This document shows, piece by piece, positions 3,562-61,135 of a DNA stretch of 64,000 bases (position 1 is the stretch's first letter; each line of letters opens with the position of its first letter). The position numbers were made by a program, and so were the translations under genes. This DNA is from Fistulifera solaris (Eukaryota): assembly GCA_030295235.1 (NCBI GenBank), contig AP026141.1, positions 124,001 through 188,000 on the forward strand, given 5' to 3'. The notes below the pieces were generated by a model. It was not told the origin of the DNA. It searched no databases and saw only the letters and a list, made by a program, of their open reading frames with translations.

Positions 3562-4374
3562 GGTGTATTGTTTCTATGAGTTAATGGCAATGATTCTATG
3601 TACATGAGCTGCTTTTGTTTGTTGCGTGTACAATGAGCTAATGATGGAGTAGGTGTTTGTTATGTTTTACGAGGATGCAAAGAACAAAGAATAAGAATGA
3701 GTCACATCCGATGATCCGAATGTTTCCCCATGACGCGCGATCTTGAAACATGAGAAGCCTCTATAGGCGTTCAAGCTTTCCCTTACCTTATTCAATGAGA
3801 ACGAAGAAAAATGCTAGCTAGAGCATCAACAATGTCAGAACCAAGACACTTTTTTTCTCTTTGGTGTGATTGCCGTGATGTTTTGTGGGATGATGAGAAT
3901 CCATCACCCAAATTCGCGACGAAAGACAACGGAAAACGAGAAAATGACGTCAACGACATGTGTATCGCCTTATAGAGTACACAAGAACCACGTCACCATG
4001 GCAAAAACATCCTTTCGCACTTGGAACGAGCAACGTCGCTCGGTCGACACCGATGCGACCAAACGTTGATTTTAAGTCAGTCATGAGCAGGAATGCGGGG
4101 TCATTCGTTTTGTACACGTGGAACGCACAGACTTGCAACCCCGTTTTTTTTCGTGATGGACCGCGAAAGGAACGTCACAGCCGCTCATTGCATTGTTTGT
4201 TGCATCGCATGATTGGTTGCTTTGCTAACTGTCTCTTTTATTTGGCGCTTCCAGTCTCTAGTTATTAATAAAGATCTGTTGTAGCAGCGATAATAACAGC
4301 AAAAAACGGGATTTTGCAACGACTGACTTTAGAAAAAAGCCTTGACTCCGAAACTGAGAAAATCGGCAACAACA

Positions 4375-7347
4375 ATGTGGAGAATCACGTGGCTTTTATT
4401 AGCGCCTCTGTTACTACTGGGCCAAGCCGAAGCACGCGCAATATTGGGCATTGATTTGGGCAGTGTCTATATGAAAGTCGCCTTGGTGCAATCGGGAAGT
4501 CCGCTCGAAATTGTCACCAATTTACATTCGAAACGAAAAACGGAACAAATGATTCTCTTTGATGGAAAAGATCAGCAACGATTTTATGGAGCCGATGCGG
4601 ATGCTTTGTTGGCACGGAAAGCCGCCAGTACACCCACCAGTATGAGTGTCATGTTGGGACGGGAGGAACAACATCCGGCCGTCAAAGTACGTCTGTTGTT
4701 ACTATATTATAGTATGTTGCGTCGATCTTTCGTTCCTTCTTTCTCACACCATGCCCCCTTTAGGTCCTCGCGGAACGATATTTACCCGTTACGCCCTATT
4801 ACAACGAAACGCGGTTGGGTTTGTCGGTGCAACTCGGCAAGAAAGAGACAGATCCTATCTACACACCCGAAGAATTAGTGGCCATGGTGTTACAACATGC
4901 CGTGGACATTAGTACCGCGTACGCGGCCGAACAGGGTCACGCCAGCATGTTGCCTCCGAAAGATATTGTCATTACCGTTCCATCTTTTGCGACGCAGCGG
5001 GAGCGTATGGCCTTGTTGGATGCCGCGGCGTTGGTGGATTTGAATGTCTTGCTCTTAATTGATGACAATACGGCGGCCGCATTACAATACAGTATGGACA
5101 AGACGTTCGCGGATGCGACCAACGAGCATTCGGAAGATCAGTGGATTCTGTTTTACAATGTGGGAGCGACTTCGGTGCAAGCCACATTGGTGCACTTTTA
5201 TTCGTATTTGCAGCCACAAAAGTACGGAAAGCCGAAGCGTGTCCCCACCGCTGAAGTTGTCGCCAAAGCGTGGGATGCCACCGCCGGTGGCTTGGCCTTG
5301 GATCATGTTTTGGTAGAACATTTGGCCAACGCCTTTGAACAGCAAAATCCGCAAATGCAGGGTCTCCGTGAGAATGTCCGGGCCATGACCAAGTTGCGCA
5401 TTCAAGCCAATAAGATCAAGCACGTATTGAGCGCCAATGCGGATATTCCCATTACTTTGGACGCCTTGCACAATGATGCCCCGTTGCAGCAACACATGAC
5501 GCGTGCGGAATTGGAGACTCTGGCGGCTCCTTTGATTCAACGGGCCGTGCAACCCGCCTTGGATTGTTTGAAGCGCGCGAATAAGACCATTGCGGATTTG
5601 ACGGCCGTCGAATTGATTGGTGGAGGTATGCGTGTTCCAGCCATTCAGAGTGGTTTGCAGGCAGCGTTGGGAGTGGAGGAACTTGGTTTGCATATGAATT
5701 CGGATGAAAGTATGGCCTTGGGAGCGGCGTTTGCGGGTGCCAATCACAGCACAGCGTTCCGTGTACGACACATTGGTCTGGTGGACGTGTGTCCCTTTGC
5801 TTATCAAGTTACTCTCACGGATCTAAACCCTGATAAAAAAAGCCGACGAGTGGAAGAAGCAGACCACCATGTTCAAATCCTTTGGGAAATTGGGCATCAA
5901 AAAGACGATTACCTTCACTCACGAGGCGGATTGTCTGTGCCAGTTGGACTATGCCGAGGATGCGGAGCATGTTGGTTTGCTACCGGAAGGAACGGAGCGT
6001 TCGTTAGTTGAATACTCTATCACGGGCATTGCTGACTTTGCGACCAAAATGAAAGAAAAGGGAGCTCCCAAGGTTTCGTTGCAGTTTGAGTTGACCGCGT
6101 CGGGTATCGCGCACCTCGTCAAGGCGGAGGCGTCTGTCGAGGAAACGTACATGGCACAAGAAGAAATCGAAGTGGACGATGAAGAGGCCGCAACGGAGGA
6201 GGAAGCTGCCGAACCGGCCAAAGACAAGGCCGAAAACGCTGCATCAGGTAAAGATGAAGCTTCGGAAAGTACTTCTGAGAATAAAGATGCCGAAAAAGCG
6301 GACGAGACTGACAAAAGACCGAGGATGATAAGAACAAAGAAAAGTCTAAGGACAAAAAACCAAAAGCAAAGCCTAAGAAACGCATTACAGTAGAAAAGGT
6401 ACGTTCGTATCATGGCAACAATATCTACTCGCTGTGCTCACTGTTTTGACTCACGCACTTAGTTGTTCGGTACCTTCCACAAACCACCCGCCTTTGTTTC
6501 CAAAGGAAAAAACGCGCATCATCAAAGAAACTCTGACCGTGACAGCGCGAAACAAGGGCAAAGTCCAACCCTTGACTCCGGAACTCATGGAAGCGTCGCG
6601 CGCCAAACTCGCGGCTCTGGCCGAAAAGACAAGCTTCGCATCCTCCGAGAGGAAACTCGCAACAAATTAGAATCGTATATTTACAAAATCAAAAATACTA
6701 TCCAAGATGTGGAGGGAATCAAAGAGGTTGCCACCGAAGAACAACTGCAGGAGTGCATGGATTTGGCCTTGGCTGCACAAGAATGGATGGATGACGATGG
6801 GTACGGTGCGGACATTGCTTCGATGGAGCAAAAGTACACGACTGTTTCGGATCCGTTCGAAAAGATTTTGTTTCGATACAAAGAGAAAGAAGCTAGACCA
6901 GCGGCAGTGGCTGCCTTACAAAAGCAACTAACGGATATCGAAAAACTGATGGAAAACTGGTCGACCAGCAAACCCCAAGTAACGGAGGCTGAACGGGCCG
7001 AGGTCTTGGAAGAGGTGGAACTGGTCAAAAAGTGGTTAGCCGAGAAAGAATCGGAACAATCCTCGAAACAACCTCATGAAGAGCCTGCCTTCACAAGCGC
7101 GGAGGTTCCCAAAATGATTCGAACGGCCGAAAAGAAGATTTTACTGCTGAGCAAGAAGCCGAAACCGAAGCCACCAAAGAAAGAGAAGAATGAAACCAAA
7201 GCGGAAAATGAAACCGCCACGGAAGGAGAAAGTTCTGAATCATCCGCCGACGGTTCGGCCGAACAACCAGTGGACGAAAAACCTTCGGAGGATGCTGGTG
7301 AGCCAAAGGCGGACTCGACCGAGGCAGATCCCAGTGATGAACTATAA
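4375..7347 (+). CDS. HYOU1: ER-luminal Hsp70-family nucleotide exchange factor GRP170/HYOU1
   Basis: Signal peptide, ILGIDLG, ELIGGGMRVP, NSDESMALGAA, RNKLESYIY and a C-terminal SDEL ER-retention signal. Introns at ~4687-4763 and ~6399-6505; several 1-nt frameshifts. Confidence 0.9.
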
Positions 7348-53080: not shown

Positions 53081-55976
53081 ATGATTATGAATGTTGACCT
53101 CCCTTTGGAAACAATGACGAAGGAAGAGGTAGTTGAAGAAGAAGCGGCAGAGCAACTAAAGCGGGAAGATATTGCAGAAGAACAGAGCCAGCAAAATGAG
53201 AGCAATACGAAAGCTGATGATGCATGGGATGCGGCGTCAGTCGACGCATTATTTCCAAAAGCCGCCGCTCTTTCTATTGTAATATGGCTCCTTCTTGTTG
53301 TTCTTGTTTTGACACAAACACCGCCCGAGTATCATGAAGTACTGCGGGAGGAAGAACGAGTCGCAACATTTCTGGCGGCCGTCGTCATGTTTGTGACGCT
53401 TCTGGCGTTGTTGATGCCCTCATTACTCTTCAAAACGTCCTATCCCAGTGGGATTGTCATCGCCGGTACGGCCGTCTGCTTTGTCGCCATGTGCACCAAT
53501 CTAATCCTGTGTTTGCGTCCCACGGTGGTCGTGGTCGATCCGGTCACCAAAGCGCGCGTCTTTCTGCTCCGTTGGTGCGAATGGATCCCACTCGGTGGTC
53601 TCATGACGTTCCTCTCCGAAGCCGTCTATGTCAGTGACGACACGGGAGGCATGGAGGGAGCGTTGTTCTCGACACTGTGCCAAACGCTGTCCATTGTTAA
53701 TGGTATGATCCTGCCCCTCTGCAAGGATGTGGTGGTCTGGCGGTGCGTATTTGCCTTTAGTTTCTTGTCCTATACCGATATATTCCGTCGTGTATATATC
53801 AAACGAAAAGCCTATTTAAAAAAGCATTCAAAAGAGTGACGGCGTTCAGGATCAAAAGCTTCAAGATCAAGTCAAGTTCGCTTATTTCCTTCTATTGGCT
53901 TGCAGTATTGTGTGGTCGGTACTGGTGGTTTTATATTGTATCAATGTATGGATCCACACCCTGTCGGATTTGGAAACTAAGTGGTACTACCGGGAGTCTC
54001 TTGCCATGATCGTAGATACGTCTTTTGATGTGCTGGCCAAATCCATCTACATGAAGTTGATTACCGATATTCATCAAGCGCTCTTTGATGAAACGTATCA
54101 ATGGAGAAAGCAGCTCACGGAAATGCGGCAACTGATCAGTGTCATGTGGGATTCGAGTTCCGATGTCATTCTCATTTCCATTCGAACCAACCAAGGGTTA
54201 TCGGCCATCTTATCACCGGCTTTCTTTCCGCTAGTGGGCGCCAAGCTGCCAGAATCGTTGCATCGAGAGGGCTCCGAAGTGGCGTTAATGTGTTCCGTCA
54301 GTAGTTCGGGGAAAATCAAATGCGATTATGTCGAGACAAATGATATACTCGTGGATCCACATCGCAATCATAAAATACTACAGAGTGCCGAAAATCGAGA
54401 ATCGGTATTGAAAGGGGCGCAAGAGCTTTTGGAAATGACTTGGAATAATACGGTAGCCAAGGGAGTGTCCACGCCATTGTTAGAACACCCGCTTCACGGA
54501 GAAGACGGTACTATTCGACAATCGGAGATAAAAATCTCATACTATTCCGAATCTGCCCGAGTAGGAGTTATTCGGGATGTTTCCGAACGGTATCTTCGGT
54601 TGGAAGCGGAACGAAAGGCGCACATGGAAATGGTGGCGCGACAAAAGGACGCTCAAGCTGTCAATCGCTTCACCCGGCATGAGGTAAAAAACGGTTTATT
54701 GGAAGGGATTGAGCTGTGTGATAGCCTTCGTTCGGCTGTAGAAGATCTTGTCGCTCAGTCTTCTTTGGCGCCAAGTCCGTCCAACCCATCCCAGAGGAAA
54801 AGAAATGGCAGCGTTGGAGAAGAGTCCGATCGCGAAGTTGGTAGTCGCGCGGTCAGTGCTCTGACACGACGTTTTATCGAGGATCTTGATTACAATCTGC
54901 ATAGCGTATTGGACTGTGTTCTCGCGGAGGCGATGGCAAGAGACGTGATCCATGGTGATTACAAACCGAGGCATGAACGGATTGATGTAAAGGGAGTGCT
55001 TTCACATCCTGGACTTGGGATTGGATTTACAGACAAATTCCCGATTGAAGTTTTGGGCGGGTCATTACCGTACGTAAGCTTGGATGCCCAACTGCTACGG
55101 CACATTCACCGAAATGCGCTGTCAAATGCATGCAAGTATGGCAAGGCAGGAGGAAAGGTTGTGACACAACTATCGTTTGATTCACTGAGTAAGACGTTCA
55201 CTATCAACGTGATCAACGAGCCGGGAGAAATGCATTCGAAGCTCGTCAGCATGGGAGAATCTGCAAAGGCGGCCGTCTTTCAACAAGGTGCTAGATTACA
55301 TTCTCACTTGAATCTTGAAACTGGTCATATTTCTTCTGGCGATGGCGCATGGATTATGCAAAAATGTGCCAAAACACTCGACGGGGAATGTCAGATTGAG
55401 TTTTTGGAAGACAAGACAGTATTCACATTTTCTTGTCCAGCTCAGCCGCTTGTAGTTACGGATTGGAGCAAAACACAAGACTTTGAGGTTCCATCCAACA
55501 CTTGGGGGATTGCGATTGATGATTCAAAAATTCAAAGACGGCTGCTGTCACGTATCTTTTTGTTCGCTGGCGTTCAGGAATCTAAAACTGTTGTTCTGGG
55601 GGAATCGTATTCGGAAGTAGCAGAATTCAAAGAGAAGGTCCTTTCAGTCGTTAAAGAATATCCCGACGATAGGATATTGATTTTGGTCGATGAAAACCTG
55701 GACTTTGGAAAAAGCAACGAAAAGCCTCACGTCATGTCTGGGTCATTGCTGATGCAAGATATCTTGAAACTAATGTCACCAACCGAGGAGCAGCATGTTC
55801 TTGCTCTTGTTCGGTCAGCAAACGATTCGGCAGAAGAAACCGAACTATATTGCGCACGGACGCATGGTTTCTTCCCCAAGGGCCCCTTACAACGCGATCG
55901 AGTACGAGAGATTCTGGCCCCTCTCTGGGCCGACCGATTTATGAGAACCGACCTACTAACCGCATCATCGTCGTAG
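53081..55976 (+). CDS. Histidine kinase rhodopsin-like hybrid sensor: 8-TM microbial rhodopsin + PAS-like + HisKA/HATPase + receiver
   Basis: Helix C LRWCEW and helix G FDVLAK; H-box RHEVKNG, N-box NALSNACKYG, G-box SGDGAWI; REC AIDDSKIQR...VDENL...RSAND. Removing one A from the run at 53818-53823 joins the two ORFs. Confidence 0.85.
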
Positions 55977-56344
55977 ACTTCAGCACTGTGCGATAGGGCG
56001 TACAAGCTGTAAGTGTTCGAACGATCGAACGTTGCCTCCAGTGGATACATGGAAGTTTCTTCCTTGCTCGTTTCGAGAAATCGAATTAGCAAGGGAATCT
56101 TTTCTCCCGCAATTTTTGCAGTTTTTGTTTAAGATTCCGCCAGTCGCTGTTCACCTTTCGTAAATGAAACACAGGCAATGCGCTCCATGGCGGGACCTGA
56201 ACCTTTGTGCAGCAGCACGATAAAGCGTAATTAATAATTAAAGTATGATCCTGTTATCAGTTTGTTATTTGTTTATTTCTGATACATCATCAATTCTTCT
56301 TCATTCAGAATCCAGATTGGCCAAGTTGTGTCGCTCCAACAAAA

Positions 56345-56436
56345 TCAGATCTGGCTTGTCGTCAAAAATGGACCTACGCCGCTCGAGCGGGTGATCTCCA
56401 TTTCGTCATTCCTCCAAAAAAAAGGTAAATCTAGAT
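56345..56436 (-). promoter_or_regulatory. Candidate SECIS element in selenoprotein 3' UTR
   Basis: Minus strand: AUGA-C-GAAAUGGA...CCGC-UCGA-GCGG...UCCAUUUU-UGAC, core 56361-56409, 70 nt after the stop codon. Confidence 0.7.
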
Positions 56437-56478
56437 CGTATCCAATTATCAGCAACGAGGTCAATAATTCACTCCTTC

Positions 56479-56836
56479 TTATTCCTCCAAAATCTCTACG
56501 AGTCGCGTGACAATGGCTTCCCGCTCTCGCAACGATTCCGCTTTTCCTTGTCCTCCGTGTTTCTTCGAATGCACGACTTCACCCGTCTCGATGACGGTCA
56601 CTTCGAAATTTCCCGTCACCATGGGATCTTCCTTTCCGATCACAGCGACGCGATCGATTAATTTGGGTTGTTTCGAAAGATAATCTTTCAACGCCCGGAA
56701 CTGTTTCCCGTAGCCTGCATGGAAACAGGAACGGCGCGCGGTCATGAGATTAAAATGAACATATTTCGCAACGAATTTGTCTTATCTTACCTCATCCGCC
56801 TCAATACTGCACTTGAATAGTAATAGTAGAGGTCAT
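56479..56836 (-). CDS. SELENOW: SelW/Rdx-family selenoprotein, 93 aa, two in-frame UGA codons (YUGGUGY); intron 56715-56790
   Basis: Exon 1 ATG...CAG TAT TGA GGC GGA TGA G|gtaag; exon 2 cag|GC TAC...GNFEVTVIETGEVVHSKKHGGQG (SelW signature). Confidence 0.85.
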
Positions 56837-56871
56837 TGTCTAATGAACGATGGTAATATTATGAGTGTTTA

Positions 56872-57951
56872 GGGCCTTTATTATCGGGCAGAATTACCGT
56901 CCATTAGAGCGTCCATTAGAATTTTTCGTCTGTTCTCGTCCGGATAATAATTTTTCGAGCGTTGACGTGAACAGGACCAACGTTCACGTGAACGAATTCG
57001 TTCATTTCGTTTTTTGATGTCCATTATGACGTTTTGGCGCCCAAAGGCGAAAAAACTCCACCCCTTCGCATTTTGTCGCGGTAACAAACATTTGTTTCAC
57101 ACTTCTTCTTTGCACAAATACAAGTGAAACTATTCAAATACAAGTCTAATTCATTCCATTATGACAGATAGTAACAAAGAAAACAGCGACTGTGACAGCG
57201 TGAACACCGCAATCCTCGAAGCGATTGCGAATGGCGATATAATCATGTCGACAAAAGGCAACGTGTCGTCTGTTACCGCGACATCTCCCGTTGAAGTCGC
57301 GCTTCCTGCTCCAGCACCTCCCACGCCTCTTGCAACAACCATTTCCGGCGGAATGTAAAGCATCGGGTCGCCAGTTGAATTGAAAGATTTCGTTTCGTCA
57401 ATGACGATTTTTTCTCCAAGATGATGTACCAGATATTGAAATGACGAGTACGTCATATGATATCTGTTCGCGAAGCCAGAATCACGACATTCGTAAAGGT
57501 GTGTATTGAATATCTTTCGGGCGATGTGACGCTTTGGGTCTCGCCTCTTTGGTTGTCGCTGACGTCGTCGACGAAGTCTCCGCACCGCCAAAACATTCAT
57601 TTAAATCTGCAGTTGAACTATTTGCAACAACACTAAGTCTTCCATTGTTTCAACAGGATGAGATATCAAGAAACAAATGAATGACCTGTTCTGGGCGACG
57701 AATGATTGATGAAATGATATAACGAATGAATGCTTTCGATTGCAAAAAAATGATGCCATTTTTCAAGGCATTGGTAAGGGAAAAAAGAAGATTTATACTT
57801 AGCATCCTTTGATGTCGTAGAGATATTGCTCTAATGAACACGTAACCAAAATGGACGCAACACCTTTCGGTAATATTGTCCGTTCATTTGGGTGTGTCCA
57901 TTTTGAAATGAACGCTCTAATGGACAGTAAAAATTTCGATAATATGAGGCC
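56872..57951. mobile_element. Non-autonomous (internally deleted) PIF/Harbinger DNA transposon, ~1.08 kb
   Basis: Imperfect ~45-bp TIRs (GGGCCTTTATTATCG...GTCCATTAGAGCGT vs the reverse complement of 57905-57951) and a TTA TSD on both sides. Minus-strand ORF 57151-57600 contains FANRYHMTYSSFQYLV...IPPEMVVA, resembling the Harbinger transposase N-terminus. Confidence 0.8.
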
Positions 57952-58987: not shown

Positions 58988-61135
58988 ATGCCGTCGTTTG
59001 AATTGAAATGCATCAACACCATTCGGGCTCTGTCCGCGGATCAGGCGGAAACGGCGGCGGCGGGACATCCCGGCGCACCAATGGGCTGTGCCCCCATTGC
59101 GTATCTGCTTTGGAGTGAGGTCATGAAGTATTCGTCGAAAGATCCGAATTGGATGGATCGTGATCGCTTCGTGTTGAGCAATGGTCATGCCTGTGCGTTG
59201 CAATACTCGATGCTGCATTTGACGGGTTACGATCTGTCGATTGAGGATCTGAAGCATTTTCGAAGCATCGATTCCAAGACTCCCGGACATCCCGAATCCT
59301 TCCAGACACCTGGTGAGTATGGTGGCTGTGAACTGGCATGTGCATGCTTGTCATCCTGTCAGGTACGGCACCTAACACGCTTTATTTTGTCTTTCCGATG
59401 AATATGCTAGGCGTCGAGCTTACGACTGGACCGTTGGGCCAAGGGATATCCAATGCGGTTGGTCTAGCCATTGCCGAGAGACACTTGGCCTCGCACTTCA
59501 ACGAATCAGACCTGCCTATCTTTGATCATTATACCTATGTTCTTTGTGGGGACGGATGTCTACAGGAAGGAATTAGCGGAGAATCGGGATCATTGGCGGG
59601 TCACCTAGGTCTGGGAAAGTTAATTGTCTTGTACGACGACAATCAGATCACCATTGACGGTGATACAGCTCTCAGTTTCACGGAAGATGTACTGAAACGA
59701 TACGAAGCCTATGGATGGCACACACAAACAGTTACCGATGTTGAAGAAACGGTTGGGAGTCTCCGAAAAGCTATTGAAACGGCAAGGAGTGTAACGGATA
59801 AGCCGTCCATTATCAAAATCAAGACGATCATTGGTTATGGAAGTCCGGGTAAACAGGGTACGAAAGGAGTTCACGGTGCTCCGCTTGGAAAAGATGAGCT
59901 AAGAAAGGCCAAAGAATTTTATGAACTTCCCCCCGGATGAGATGTTTTACGTCCCGGAAGATGTCCAGAACTTTTTCAATGATGTCGCTGCAAAAGGAGA
60001 CACAAAGCGTAAAGACTGGGAAGACATGTTTTCGAAATACTCTTCCAAATTTCCCGACAAAGCCTCTGAGATCTCACGCCGCATGGCTCGAAAGCTTCCT
60101 GAAGGTCTGTTCGATAAGCTTCCCACTTTTAAAGCCGGAAAGGACAAGGACCTAGCGACTCGAAAACACAGCCACCAGATATTGGGTGCCATTGCTCCCA
60201 ACATGCCTGAGTTGATTGGTGGCTCAGCGGATTTGACGCCGTCCAACTTGACCGATTATGATGATGCTGTTGATTTTCAAAAGGACACCCCAGAAGGTCG
60301 TTACATCCGCTTTGGTGTACGTGAGCACGCCATGGTGGCCATCTCGAATGGAATATTCGCTCATGGTGGTCTGCGTCCGTACTGCGCAACATTCCTAAAC
60401 TTTGCCGGCTATTGCGCAGGAGCTATCCGTTTGTCTGCACTTTCCAAGTTCGGCGTAATTTTCGTCATGACCCACGACTCGATCGGTCTCGGTGAAGACG
60501 GACCAACGCATCAACCGATTGAAACGCTAGAAATGTTGCGTGCTACACCTAATTTGAACGTCTACCGACCGGGTGATGGGAACGAGACATCGGCAGCGTA
60601 CAAGAGCGCGTTGGAGCACACTGATACCCCAACGGTGATTCTCTATCTCGGTCGACAGTCAAGGCAATTCCAAACAGTTCAATTGAAAAAAGCCTGCAAG
60701 GGAGCCTATGTTGCCCAAGATGTCGATAACCCTTCTCTGATTATCATTGCCACCGGATCGGAGGTGGGACCATCACTCGAAGCTGCTTCTCATCTATCTG
60801 CCGAAGGTGTCCCCACGCGAGTCGTTTCAATGCCCTGTCAGGAGGTGTTCCTGACTCAGCCAGAATCCTACCAACGCGAGGTCCTTCCTGGAAATATTCC
60901 TACGTTAGCTGTTGAGGCTTCGGCCGTGCACGGTTGGCATCGCTTTTCGCATACTTCCGTTAGTATAAGTACCTTCGGCATGAGCGGCCCAGGAGAGAAA
61001 GTTATGAAATTGTACGGTTATTCTGCAGAAAACATAGCAGAGAAAGGGAAGAAGCTCGATCAGTTCTACAAGGACAACCCCGTTCCCTCTTTGCACAACC
61101 ATCCAGACCCGTTCATTGTTAATGTACGCGAGTAA
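58988..61135 (+). CDS. TKT: Transketolase (no evident plastid presequence, likely cytosolic)
   Basis: [59 protein letters not shown]. Intron at ~59313-59410; frameshift at poly-C ~59930. Confidence 0.95.

Follow-up and report, generated by a model that had tools for sequence, protein, structure and literature searches.

A gene on the minus strand of the 64-kb stretch of Fistulifera solaris DNA analyzed here (the window) very probably encodes a 93-residue selenoprotein W (SelW)-like thiol/selenol oxidoreductase of the Rdx family, with the redox motif U-G-G-U where C-x-x-U is usual. We consider it just as probable that the locus is a real nuclear gene with two exons, from a raphid pennate diatom, in which two in-frame UGAs serve as selenocysteine (Sec) codons. 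The gene is transcribed, its mRNA is spliced in the predicted way, and both UGA codons are on it. New here are the retention of the UGGU motif across at least three diverged sequences, the spliced transcript that carries it, and the absence of the exon encoding it from public annotation.

Gene structure and transcription

The coding part of exon 1 (56791..56836; this and all other features of the gene are on the minus strand) specifies MTSTITIQVQY-U-G-G-U and contributes the opening base of the next codon, for Gly. From 56836 to 56791 it reads ATG ACC TCT ACT ATT ACT ATT CAA GTG CAG TAT TGA GGC GGA TGA G. The start codon is the ATG at 56836-56834, which places the 11 codons of MTSTITIQVQY ahead of the first TGA; a longer reading frame is impossible, because an in-frame TAG lies 6 nt upstream of this ATG. 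The first in-frame TGA (56801..56803; residue 12) occupies the site where relatives have Cys, and the second (56792..56794; residue 15) occupies the canonical Sec position of SelW. Between the redox motif and the following GY lies a 76-nt GT..AG intron of phase 1 (56715..56790), recognized in the sequence and in spliced contigs, which reads GTAAGA...TGCAG from 56790 to 56715 and splits the Gly codon after its first base. The coding part of exon 2 (56479..56714) encodes the 77 residues (G)YGKQFRALKDYLSKQPKLIDRVAVIGKEDPMVTGNFEVTVIETGEVVHSKKHGGQGKAESLREREAIVTRLVEILEE, designated P0001, which follow the pattern (G)YGKQF...FEV...VHSKK...ILEE and end at the TAA stop codon at 56481-56479. Scripted splicing of the two exons produced a CDS of 282 nt and a protein of 93 aa with two U residues and zero other internal stops. 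In the preliminary description, exon 1 had been read as MTSTITIQVQY-UGA-GG-UGA-G, which is present exactly, and exon 2 as YGKQF...FEV...VHSKK, which is read in frame at 56714-56479; every coordinate given there is correct.

Expression was assessed in four public runs (X1-X4) from one study with one organism label, whose kind we took to be RNA by guess only, none being registered as RNA. The run data are assembled contigs instead of raw reads; the strain behind them may be the one used for the genome assembly, but they are separate data. Contigs were compared over 56150-57000, and stretches uncovered in X2-X4 are uninformative. The X2 (524 nt) and X3 (525 nt) contigs each span 56258-56713 plus 56790-56857/8 without a single differing letter, and the gap between the two blocks ends in CT..AC on the plus strand, corresponding to GT..AG on the gene strand. 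Because both contigs omit exactly 76 nt with these ends, the splice is real, and the clean 76-nt GT-AG intron that had been proposed to join the exons in frame is both in the sequence and removed from these transcripts. The spliced form in X2 and X3 carries both TGAs together with a SECIS-like element in the 3' untranslated region (3'UTR; see below). The X4 contig spans 56244-56712. The X1 contig (674 nt; 56165-56837) is unspliced, with no substitutions, one extra T after 56203, and both TGAs intact; it could be DNA or pre-mRNA. Taken together, contigs from three runs (X1, X2, and X3) cover both TGAs with 0 differing letters, and two of these three contigs are spliced as predicted. An RNA check of the splice and of both UGAs had been proposed, and at the contig level it gave X2 and X3 as spliced and the TGAs as unchanged. 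TGC or TGT at 56801-56803, or an untranscribed locus, had been named as contrary to the proposal; the contigs show TGA, and the locus is transcribed.

The 5' untranslated part (56837..56858) extends as far as the spliced X2 and X3 contigs, which reach 56857 and 56858 but need not coincide with the actual start of the RNA. The extent of the 3'UTR (56244..56478) is likewise the reach of the transcript contigs, and it contains an AATAAA at 56277-56272. Contig ends fall 14-28 nt past this AATAAA, which is a weak hint of an RNA end.

The window also contains a neighboring transketolase ORF (59921-61135), whose best match is a 657-aa transketolase of Fistulifera solaris (91% identical); further matches come from the raphid pennate diatoms Mayamaea, Epithemia, Seminavis, Cylindrotheca, and Nitzschia. 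No tRNA gene was found within the 64-kb window.

Assignment to the SelW family

The exon 2 protein P0001 matched the solved mouse selenoprotein W (PDB 2npb, chain 2npb_A) with an E value of 6e-4. Taken alone, this exon 2 part scored 15.7 bits against Pfam Rdx (PF10262; cut-off 22.6) and 22.4 bits against TIGR02174 (CXXU_selWTH; cut-off 34.2), where the match begins at profile position 11. Profile position 11 is just after the redox motif, which exon 2 alone does not include. The Pfam search returned only Rdx and a weak OB_YrrC match for P0001, and only Rdx for its relatives. Full-length relatives from the metagenome scan described below scored above the same cut-offs, with 31.9, 44, and 46.4 bits for L005, L009, and L006, respectively, against Pfam Rdx, and 37.7 and 45.2 bits for L005 and L009 against TIGR02174. 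Moreover, L005 matched 2npb_A over residues 8-94 (E 4.7e-6), with its YCGGUG lying on the YSGACG of this C10S/U13C-type construct. The spliced window protein aligned end to end with L005, L006, and L009 at 40-49% identity (pairwise BLAST E values of 1.5e-21 to 3e-29). The motif QVQY-U-G-G-U-G-Y stands directly after the first beta strand, and its second U corresponds, through L005, to the U13C position of 2npb. Membership of the window protein in the Rdx/SelW family, as the preliminary description had it, is supported by the 2npb match and by the end-to-end alignment to relatives that lie above the Rdx and TIGR02174 cut-offs.

The window protein resembles SelW/Rdx proteins in its length of about 90 aa, in a motif directly after the first strand (..VxY-x-G-x-U-G-Y/F) with Sec at the second position, and in the retained TGxFEV and HSK(K/R) blocks. 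Decoding would also proceed through a 3'UTR SECIS, represented here by a SECIS-like candidate. By contrast, the first motif position is UGA in the window gene and Cys in SelW, only the diatom group has this C-terminal part (HGGQGKAES...acidic helix), and exon 2 alone scores under the family cut-offs.

Relatives and conservation of the two UGA codons

A protein search with P0001 yielded six relatives, one of which is named and comes from the diatom Seminavis robusta. A metagenome scan with alignment gave 10 loci (L001-L010), and the motif exon was readable in seven of them. It was not found in L004, L007, and L008; the matches of L004 and L008 begin at the contig edge, and L007 probably has a further intron. 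L001 reads ..LVIQVQY TGA GGA GGA TGA G|GTACGA and L002 reads ..LQIQVQY TGA GGC GGA TGA G|GTGCGT, with introns of 158 and 182 nt, respectively, in the same phase as in the window. In L003, the two sites are TGT and TGA, respectively, and its intron also follows 'TGA G' in this phase. In L005, L006, L009, and L010, TGT or TGC is followed by TGA, and no intron interrupts L005, L006, and L009 at this point. The IQVQY that precedes the first site is kept in L001, L002, L003, L005, and L006.

Thus, the second site is TGA in all seven metagenome relatives with a readable motif exon, and the first site is TGA in two (L001 and L002) and TGT or TGC in five (L003, L005, L006, L009, and L010); this is the comparison of U and C in homologs that had been proposed as a check. 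In three of three pairwise BLAST alignments (with L005, L006, and L009), U12 of the window protein falls on Cys and U15 falls on Sec. Together with the TGA-GGx-GGA-TGA of L001 and L002, these alignments bear out the earlier placement of both UGAs at the Rdx redox positions. Exon 2 of L001 and L002 is 49% and 55% identical to that of the window, respectively. Among the window, L001, and L002, the flanking codons vary synonymously (GTG/GTC, CAG/CAA, TAT/TAC, and GGC/GGA), and both TGAs are unchanged. Retention of the first TGA amid synonymous change is the standard comparative signature of a Sec codon, as at the second position. The comparison supports persistence of the UGGU state in no fewer than three diverged sequences (the window, L001, and L002).

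A maximum-likelihood tree was built from 16 short sequences over a 77-residue part, with no rows dropped and with 7 of 13 inner branches open. The sole grouping of the window in this tree is with P0003 and P0004 (96/98). Neither a single UGGU clade nor independent UGGU origins are visible in this 16-sequence tree of the 77-residue part.

Public gene models

The public model P0008 is identical to the read-through ORF of the window, and P0002 differs from it by one residue. Both begin with MTARRSCFHAG, which is the translated 3' part of the intron, from an ATG at 56745-56743. Since P0008 and P0002 start inside the intron, the public models miss the catalytic exon. The N-termini of P0003, P0005, and P0007 upstream of '..GY' are mutually unrelated, as would be expected if each model translates an intron located where the window gene has its own; apparently, P0003, P0005, P0006, and P0007 also start in the intron and are without the catalytic exon. 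F. solaris is allodiploid, from which the near-identical P0002 and the divergent X1 contigs would, hypothetically, follow.

A SECIS-like element in the 3'UTR

A candidate SECIS-like element of form-2-like type (56348..56421), with an AUGA/GA quartet and an 8-bp helix, lies in the 3'UTR 70 nt past the stop codon and reads GGAGGAAUGAC-GAAAUGGA...UCCAUUUU-UGAC. The quartet consists of AUGA at 56409-56406 and the 3' GA at 56363-56362, and the arms of helix II are 56404-56397 and 56372-56365. Eight contiguous pairs directly follow the quartet, beyond them lie an internal loop and, at the apex, a small stem, and an outer helix I closes the element. A search of 128 kb (both strands of the 64-kb window) with a SECIS rule set at ≥7 bp gave five matches, and only the element at 56348..56421 reaches 8 bp. 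We judged the other matches (plus strand, 6791-6860; minus strand, 62460-62410, 48454-48395, and 5306-5260) to be chance occurrences. The plus-strand match at 6791-6860 falls within a long coding ORF (6463-7347).

When the rule was set at ≥5 pairs and applied to 11 3'UTRs (the window and the 10 loci), five passed, namely those of the window, L001, L002, L006, and L007. The passing elements lie 55-167 nt after the stop codon and share a GGAAUGA(C/U) context with entirely different helix sequences. In a fixed register, 34 of 35 helix II positions are paired, compared to 11-18 of 35 after shifting the 3' partner by 1-3, where the high pairing is partly by construction, as the five elements were chosen by a pairing rule. 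Helix II covaries across the five elements, each position showing two to three pair types. Among the six 3'UTRs that fail the rule, that of L009 ends at the contig end, that of L003 has an uncertain 3' end, and those of L004, L005, L008, and L010 contain an AAUGA motif without an uninterrupted helix as defined by the rule.

An Rfam scan of 55500-57500 at E values up to 10 returned no SECIS family and four chance-level snoRNA or lncRNA matches. The free fold of the window candidate was not more stable than those of shuffled sequences (z = -0.58), and constrained folds of the window element and its relatives displayed no clear canonical unpaired AA at the usual apical distance. MAFFT plus RNAalifold gave no consensus structure for the five candidates, because their 3' arms are out of register; the register-fixed count was used instead. 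Overall, the comparison supports the designation of 56348..56421 as a SECIS-like element, the arrangement of which recurs in four relatives.

Alternative explanations

The first UGA could act mostly or always as a stop codon, giving an 11-residue peptide or traces of full-length protein, so that UGGU would be a recent, decaying, or regulatory Cys-to-stop change. With only 11 codons ahead of it and a second UGA following 3 codons later, this UGA is demanding for the Sec machinery. However, L001 and L002 keep the first TGA at 49-55% exon 2 identity, along with intact frames, introns, and SECIS-like elements, and a null allele would not last for so long with the rest of the gene constrained. UxxU motifs served by one SECIS are also known in SELENOL (PMC13134290), and a GUGUU motif is described for algal PDI_e (PMC7539508). 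We therefore regard termination at the first UGA as improbable. A related idea, that a near-cognate Cys or Trp tRNA instead of Sec-tRNA reads the first UGA and produces a CxxU-like or WxxU protein, draws on the low-level Cys or Trp found at UGA in other systems under selenium limitation. The presence of a conserved SECIS-like element, together with Cys at this site in relatives, which is a classic Sec/Cys pair signature, makes such decoding very improbable. We prefer the reading of both UGAs as Sec.

Errors of assembly or sequencing could have turned TGC or TGT into one or both TGAs of what would be an ordinary CxxU or CxxC SelW, and there are signs of indels elsewhere, including the transketolase split over two frames and the extra T in a contig after 56203. 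The TGAs, however, would need substitutions and not indels, a point made in the preliminary description that holds up, as the contigs of three runs match the window at both codons and the two diverged relatives L001 and L002 have the same TGA. An error at these codons is hardly credible. The public model could instead be right, in which case an intron-retaining transcript would be translated from the ATG at 56745-56743 into a Sec-less 88-residue protein without the redox motif. P0008 and P0002 are indeed annotated in this way, and one contig, in X1, is unspliced (although it could be DNA or pre-mRNA). Yet spliced contigs occur in two runs (X2 and X3), the intron-encoded N-terminus is not kept in P0003, P0005, and P0007, whereas exon 1 is kept, and the product would have neither beta-1 nor the family-defining motif. 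We consider translation from the intron extremely improbable, and we continue with the spliced, two-Sec reading.

Discussion

Proteins of the SelW family with two Sec residues have rare precedents. Lobanov et al. (2007) described a SelW-like protein of Ostreococcus lucimarinus for which two Sec were predicted (PMC2375036), Jiang et al. (2012) found a two-Sec SelW in amphioxus (PMC3473315), and Jiang et al. (2020) named both 'UxxU-type SELENOW' and read them as Cys-to-Sec events (PMC7539508). The preliminary description had called UxxU the hallmark of SELENOL; that the window motif U-G-G-U is a UxxU, as in SELENOL, stands, but the statement was incomplete in view of these two SelW proteins. The finding is accordingly much less surprising than that description held, because two-Sec SelW was already known in two species. 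The survey of Jiang et al. (2020) covered 137 algal species, 36 with genomes and four diatoms included, and its main text names only O. lucimarinus for an algal UxxU SELENOW, mentions Fistulifera only for PDI_e, and gives 20-44 selenoprotein genes for diatoms generally (PMC7539508). Full-text literature searches turned up no UxxU SelW from a diatom; the supplements or SPDB of PMC7539508 might include one.

The comparison supports the window gene as a further example of the already described UxxU-type SELENOW. Like the O. lucimarinus and amphioxus proteins, its product would belong to the SelW family and have a UxxU motif made of two predicted Sec, and all three can be explained by replacement of Cys with Sec in a gene that already had a SECIS downstream. 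Those two cases, compared here by published description only, are each from a single species, a green alga and a cephalochordate, whereas the window case is from a diatom, with UGGU in at least three diverged sequences and spliced-transcript support. SELENOL has two Sec two residues apart, one SECIS, and the capacity for a diselenide (PMC13134290). Membership in SELENOL was rejected, because Pfam places the window protein in the fold family Rdx, with zero matches to AhpC/Prx families (AhpC/TSA and Redoxin), whereas SELENOL is peroxiredoxin-like.

In the proposed mechanism, a single SECIS would recruit the Sec-specific elongation machinery, and both UGAs, three codons apart, would be read as Sec. 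Shchedrina and colleagues reportedly observed in 2007 that the UxxU of SELENOL is decoded with one SECIS. The two selenols would occupy the CxxU sites of SelW, just past the first beta strand, and would alternate between the diselenide and the free selenols or, alternatively, pass through a mixed selenenylsulfide with glutathione or with a thiol of a target or client. A UGGU site would be more nucleophilic and have a lower redox potential than CxxU. We infer Sec insertion at both UGAs, above all at the first, as well as the Se-Se bond; the predicted diselenide chemistry is plausible. As to origin, the first Sec most likely replaced a Cys, through mutation of TGT or TGC to TGA, at a time when the SECIS of the gene would already have been working. 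The gene would be a clear case of Sec gained from Cys, the less common direction in selenoprotein evolution.

Because the catalytic exon is missing from the public models, standard pipelines undercount diatom selenoproteomes. Natural diselenide (UxxU) sites are extremely uncommon, and it is not settled what they gain chemically over CxxU. The expressed UGGU protein and its close CGGU relatives form a natural matched pair in which redox potential and resistance to over-oxidation could be compared, and which would also let the cost of two close UGAs with one SECIS be measured, in a host that is a genetically tractable, oil-producing diatom. The broader proposition, that the diatom UGGU SelW constitutes a conserved lineage, of an origin independent of Ostreococcus and amphioxus, kept by selection at about 50% identity, and using a diselenide/diselenol couple, is in all its parts taken jointly finely balanced and, if anything, slightly doubtful. 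If true, this conserved diatom UGGU lineage would follow SELENOL as the second protein family of eukaryotes to maintain a diselenide active site.

Public gene models and relatives of the SelW gene

In the public protein models of the SelW-type gene or its near-identical copy (P0008 and P0002) and of its relatives (P0003, P0005, and P0007), the start is placed at an ATG within the intron, or the acceptor is otherwise read through; in the window gene this intronic start ATG lies at 56743-56745 on the minus strand. The Sec-containing exon is absent from all of these models. Annotation of this diatom SelW group systematically misses the Sec exon.

In one of the metagenome relatives with a UGGU motif (L001, 268-382), an in-frame ATG lies upstream of the MSNDK start. 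With this ATG as the start, the protein would gain a hydrophobic N-terminal extension rich in Asn (MKLARLFLFALASS...), possibly a signal or targeting peptide. The window gene lacks such an extension. In one of the CGGU relatives (L003, 1401-1500), the precise start of exon 2 is uncertain; with the acceptor ..TGCAG, followed by GT CAC ACA TAC, the motif Gly would be separated from the conserved Tyr by two inserted residues, His-Thr.

Other genes in the window

A large gene for an Hsp70-superfamily-like ER chaperone ending in ..SDEL (4342-7347, plus strand) is split among several ORFs and frames (4342-4878, 4815-6251, 5869-6393, and 6463-7347). The match at 6791-6860 to our SECIS rule (AUGA...GA plus contiguous helix pairs, both strands) falls within this coding sequence and was judged to be a chance match. 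Likewise on the plus strand, transketolase (59338-61135) is split between two ORFs, 59338-59940 and 59921-61135, which overlap but differ in frame. The Pfam Transketolase_N match runs on across the break between them, which looks like an assembly indel error or a very short intron. The second ORF shows 91% identity to the public F. solaris transketolase model (657 aa).

Sequences flanking the SelW gene

Contigs from the public run X1 differ from the window by several substitutions within 56908-56966, which suggests a second, diverged copy (homeolog). One X1 contig also carries an extra T after 56203, just downstream of the SelW 3'UTR and past the points where the transcript contigs stop on their 3' side (56244-56258). 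An error in homopolymer length could account for this T, as could a difference between alleles or homeologs.

Upstream of the SelW ATG by 125-160 nt, two copies of GTTCACGT(G/C)AACG (56960-56993, minus-strand reading) are spaced about 20 nt apart, the first containing a G-box-like CACGTG palindrome. The pair may act as a promoter element. Higher-depth X1 contigs (56871-57000, minus strand) lie immediately upstream of the 5' end of SelW and may mark where the minus-strand gene upstream of it terminates (ORF 57151-57600, which has no Pfam match). If so, SelW and this upstream gene would be very tightly spaced.
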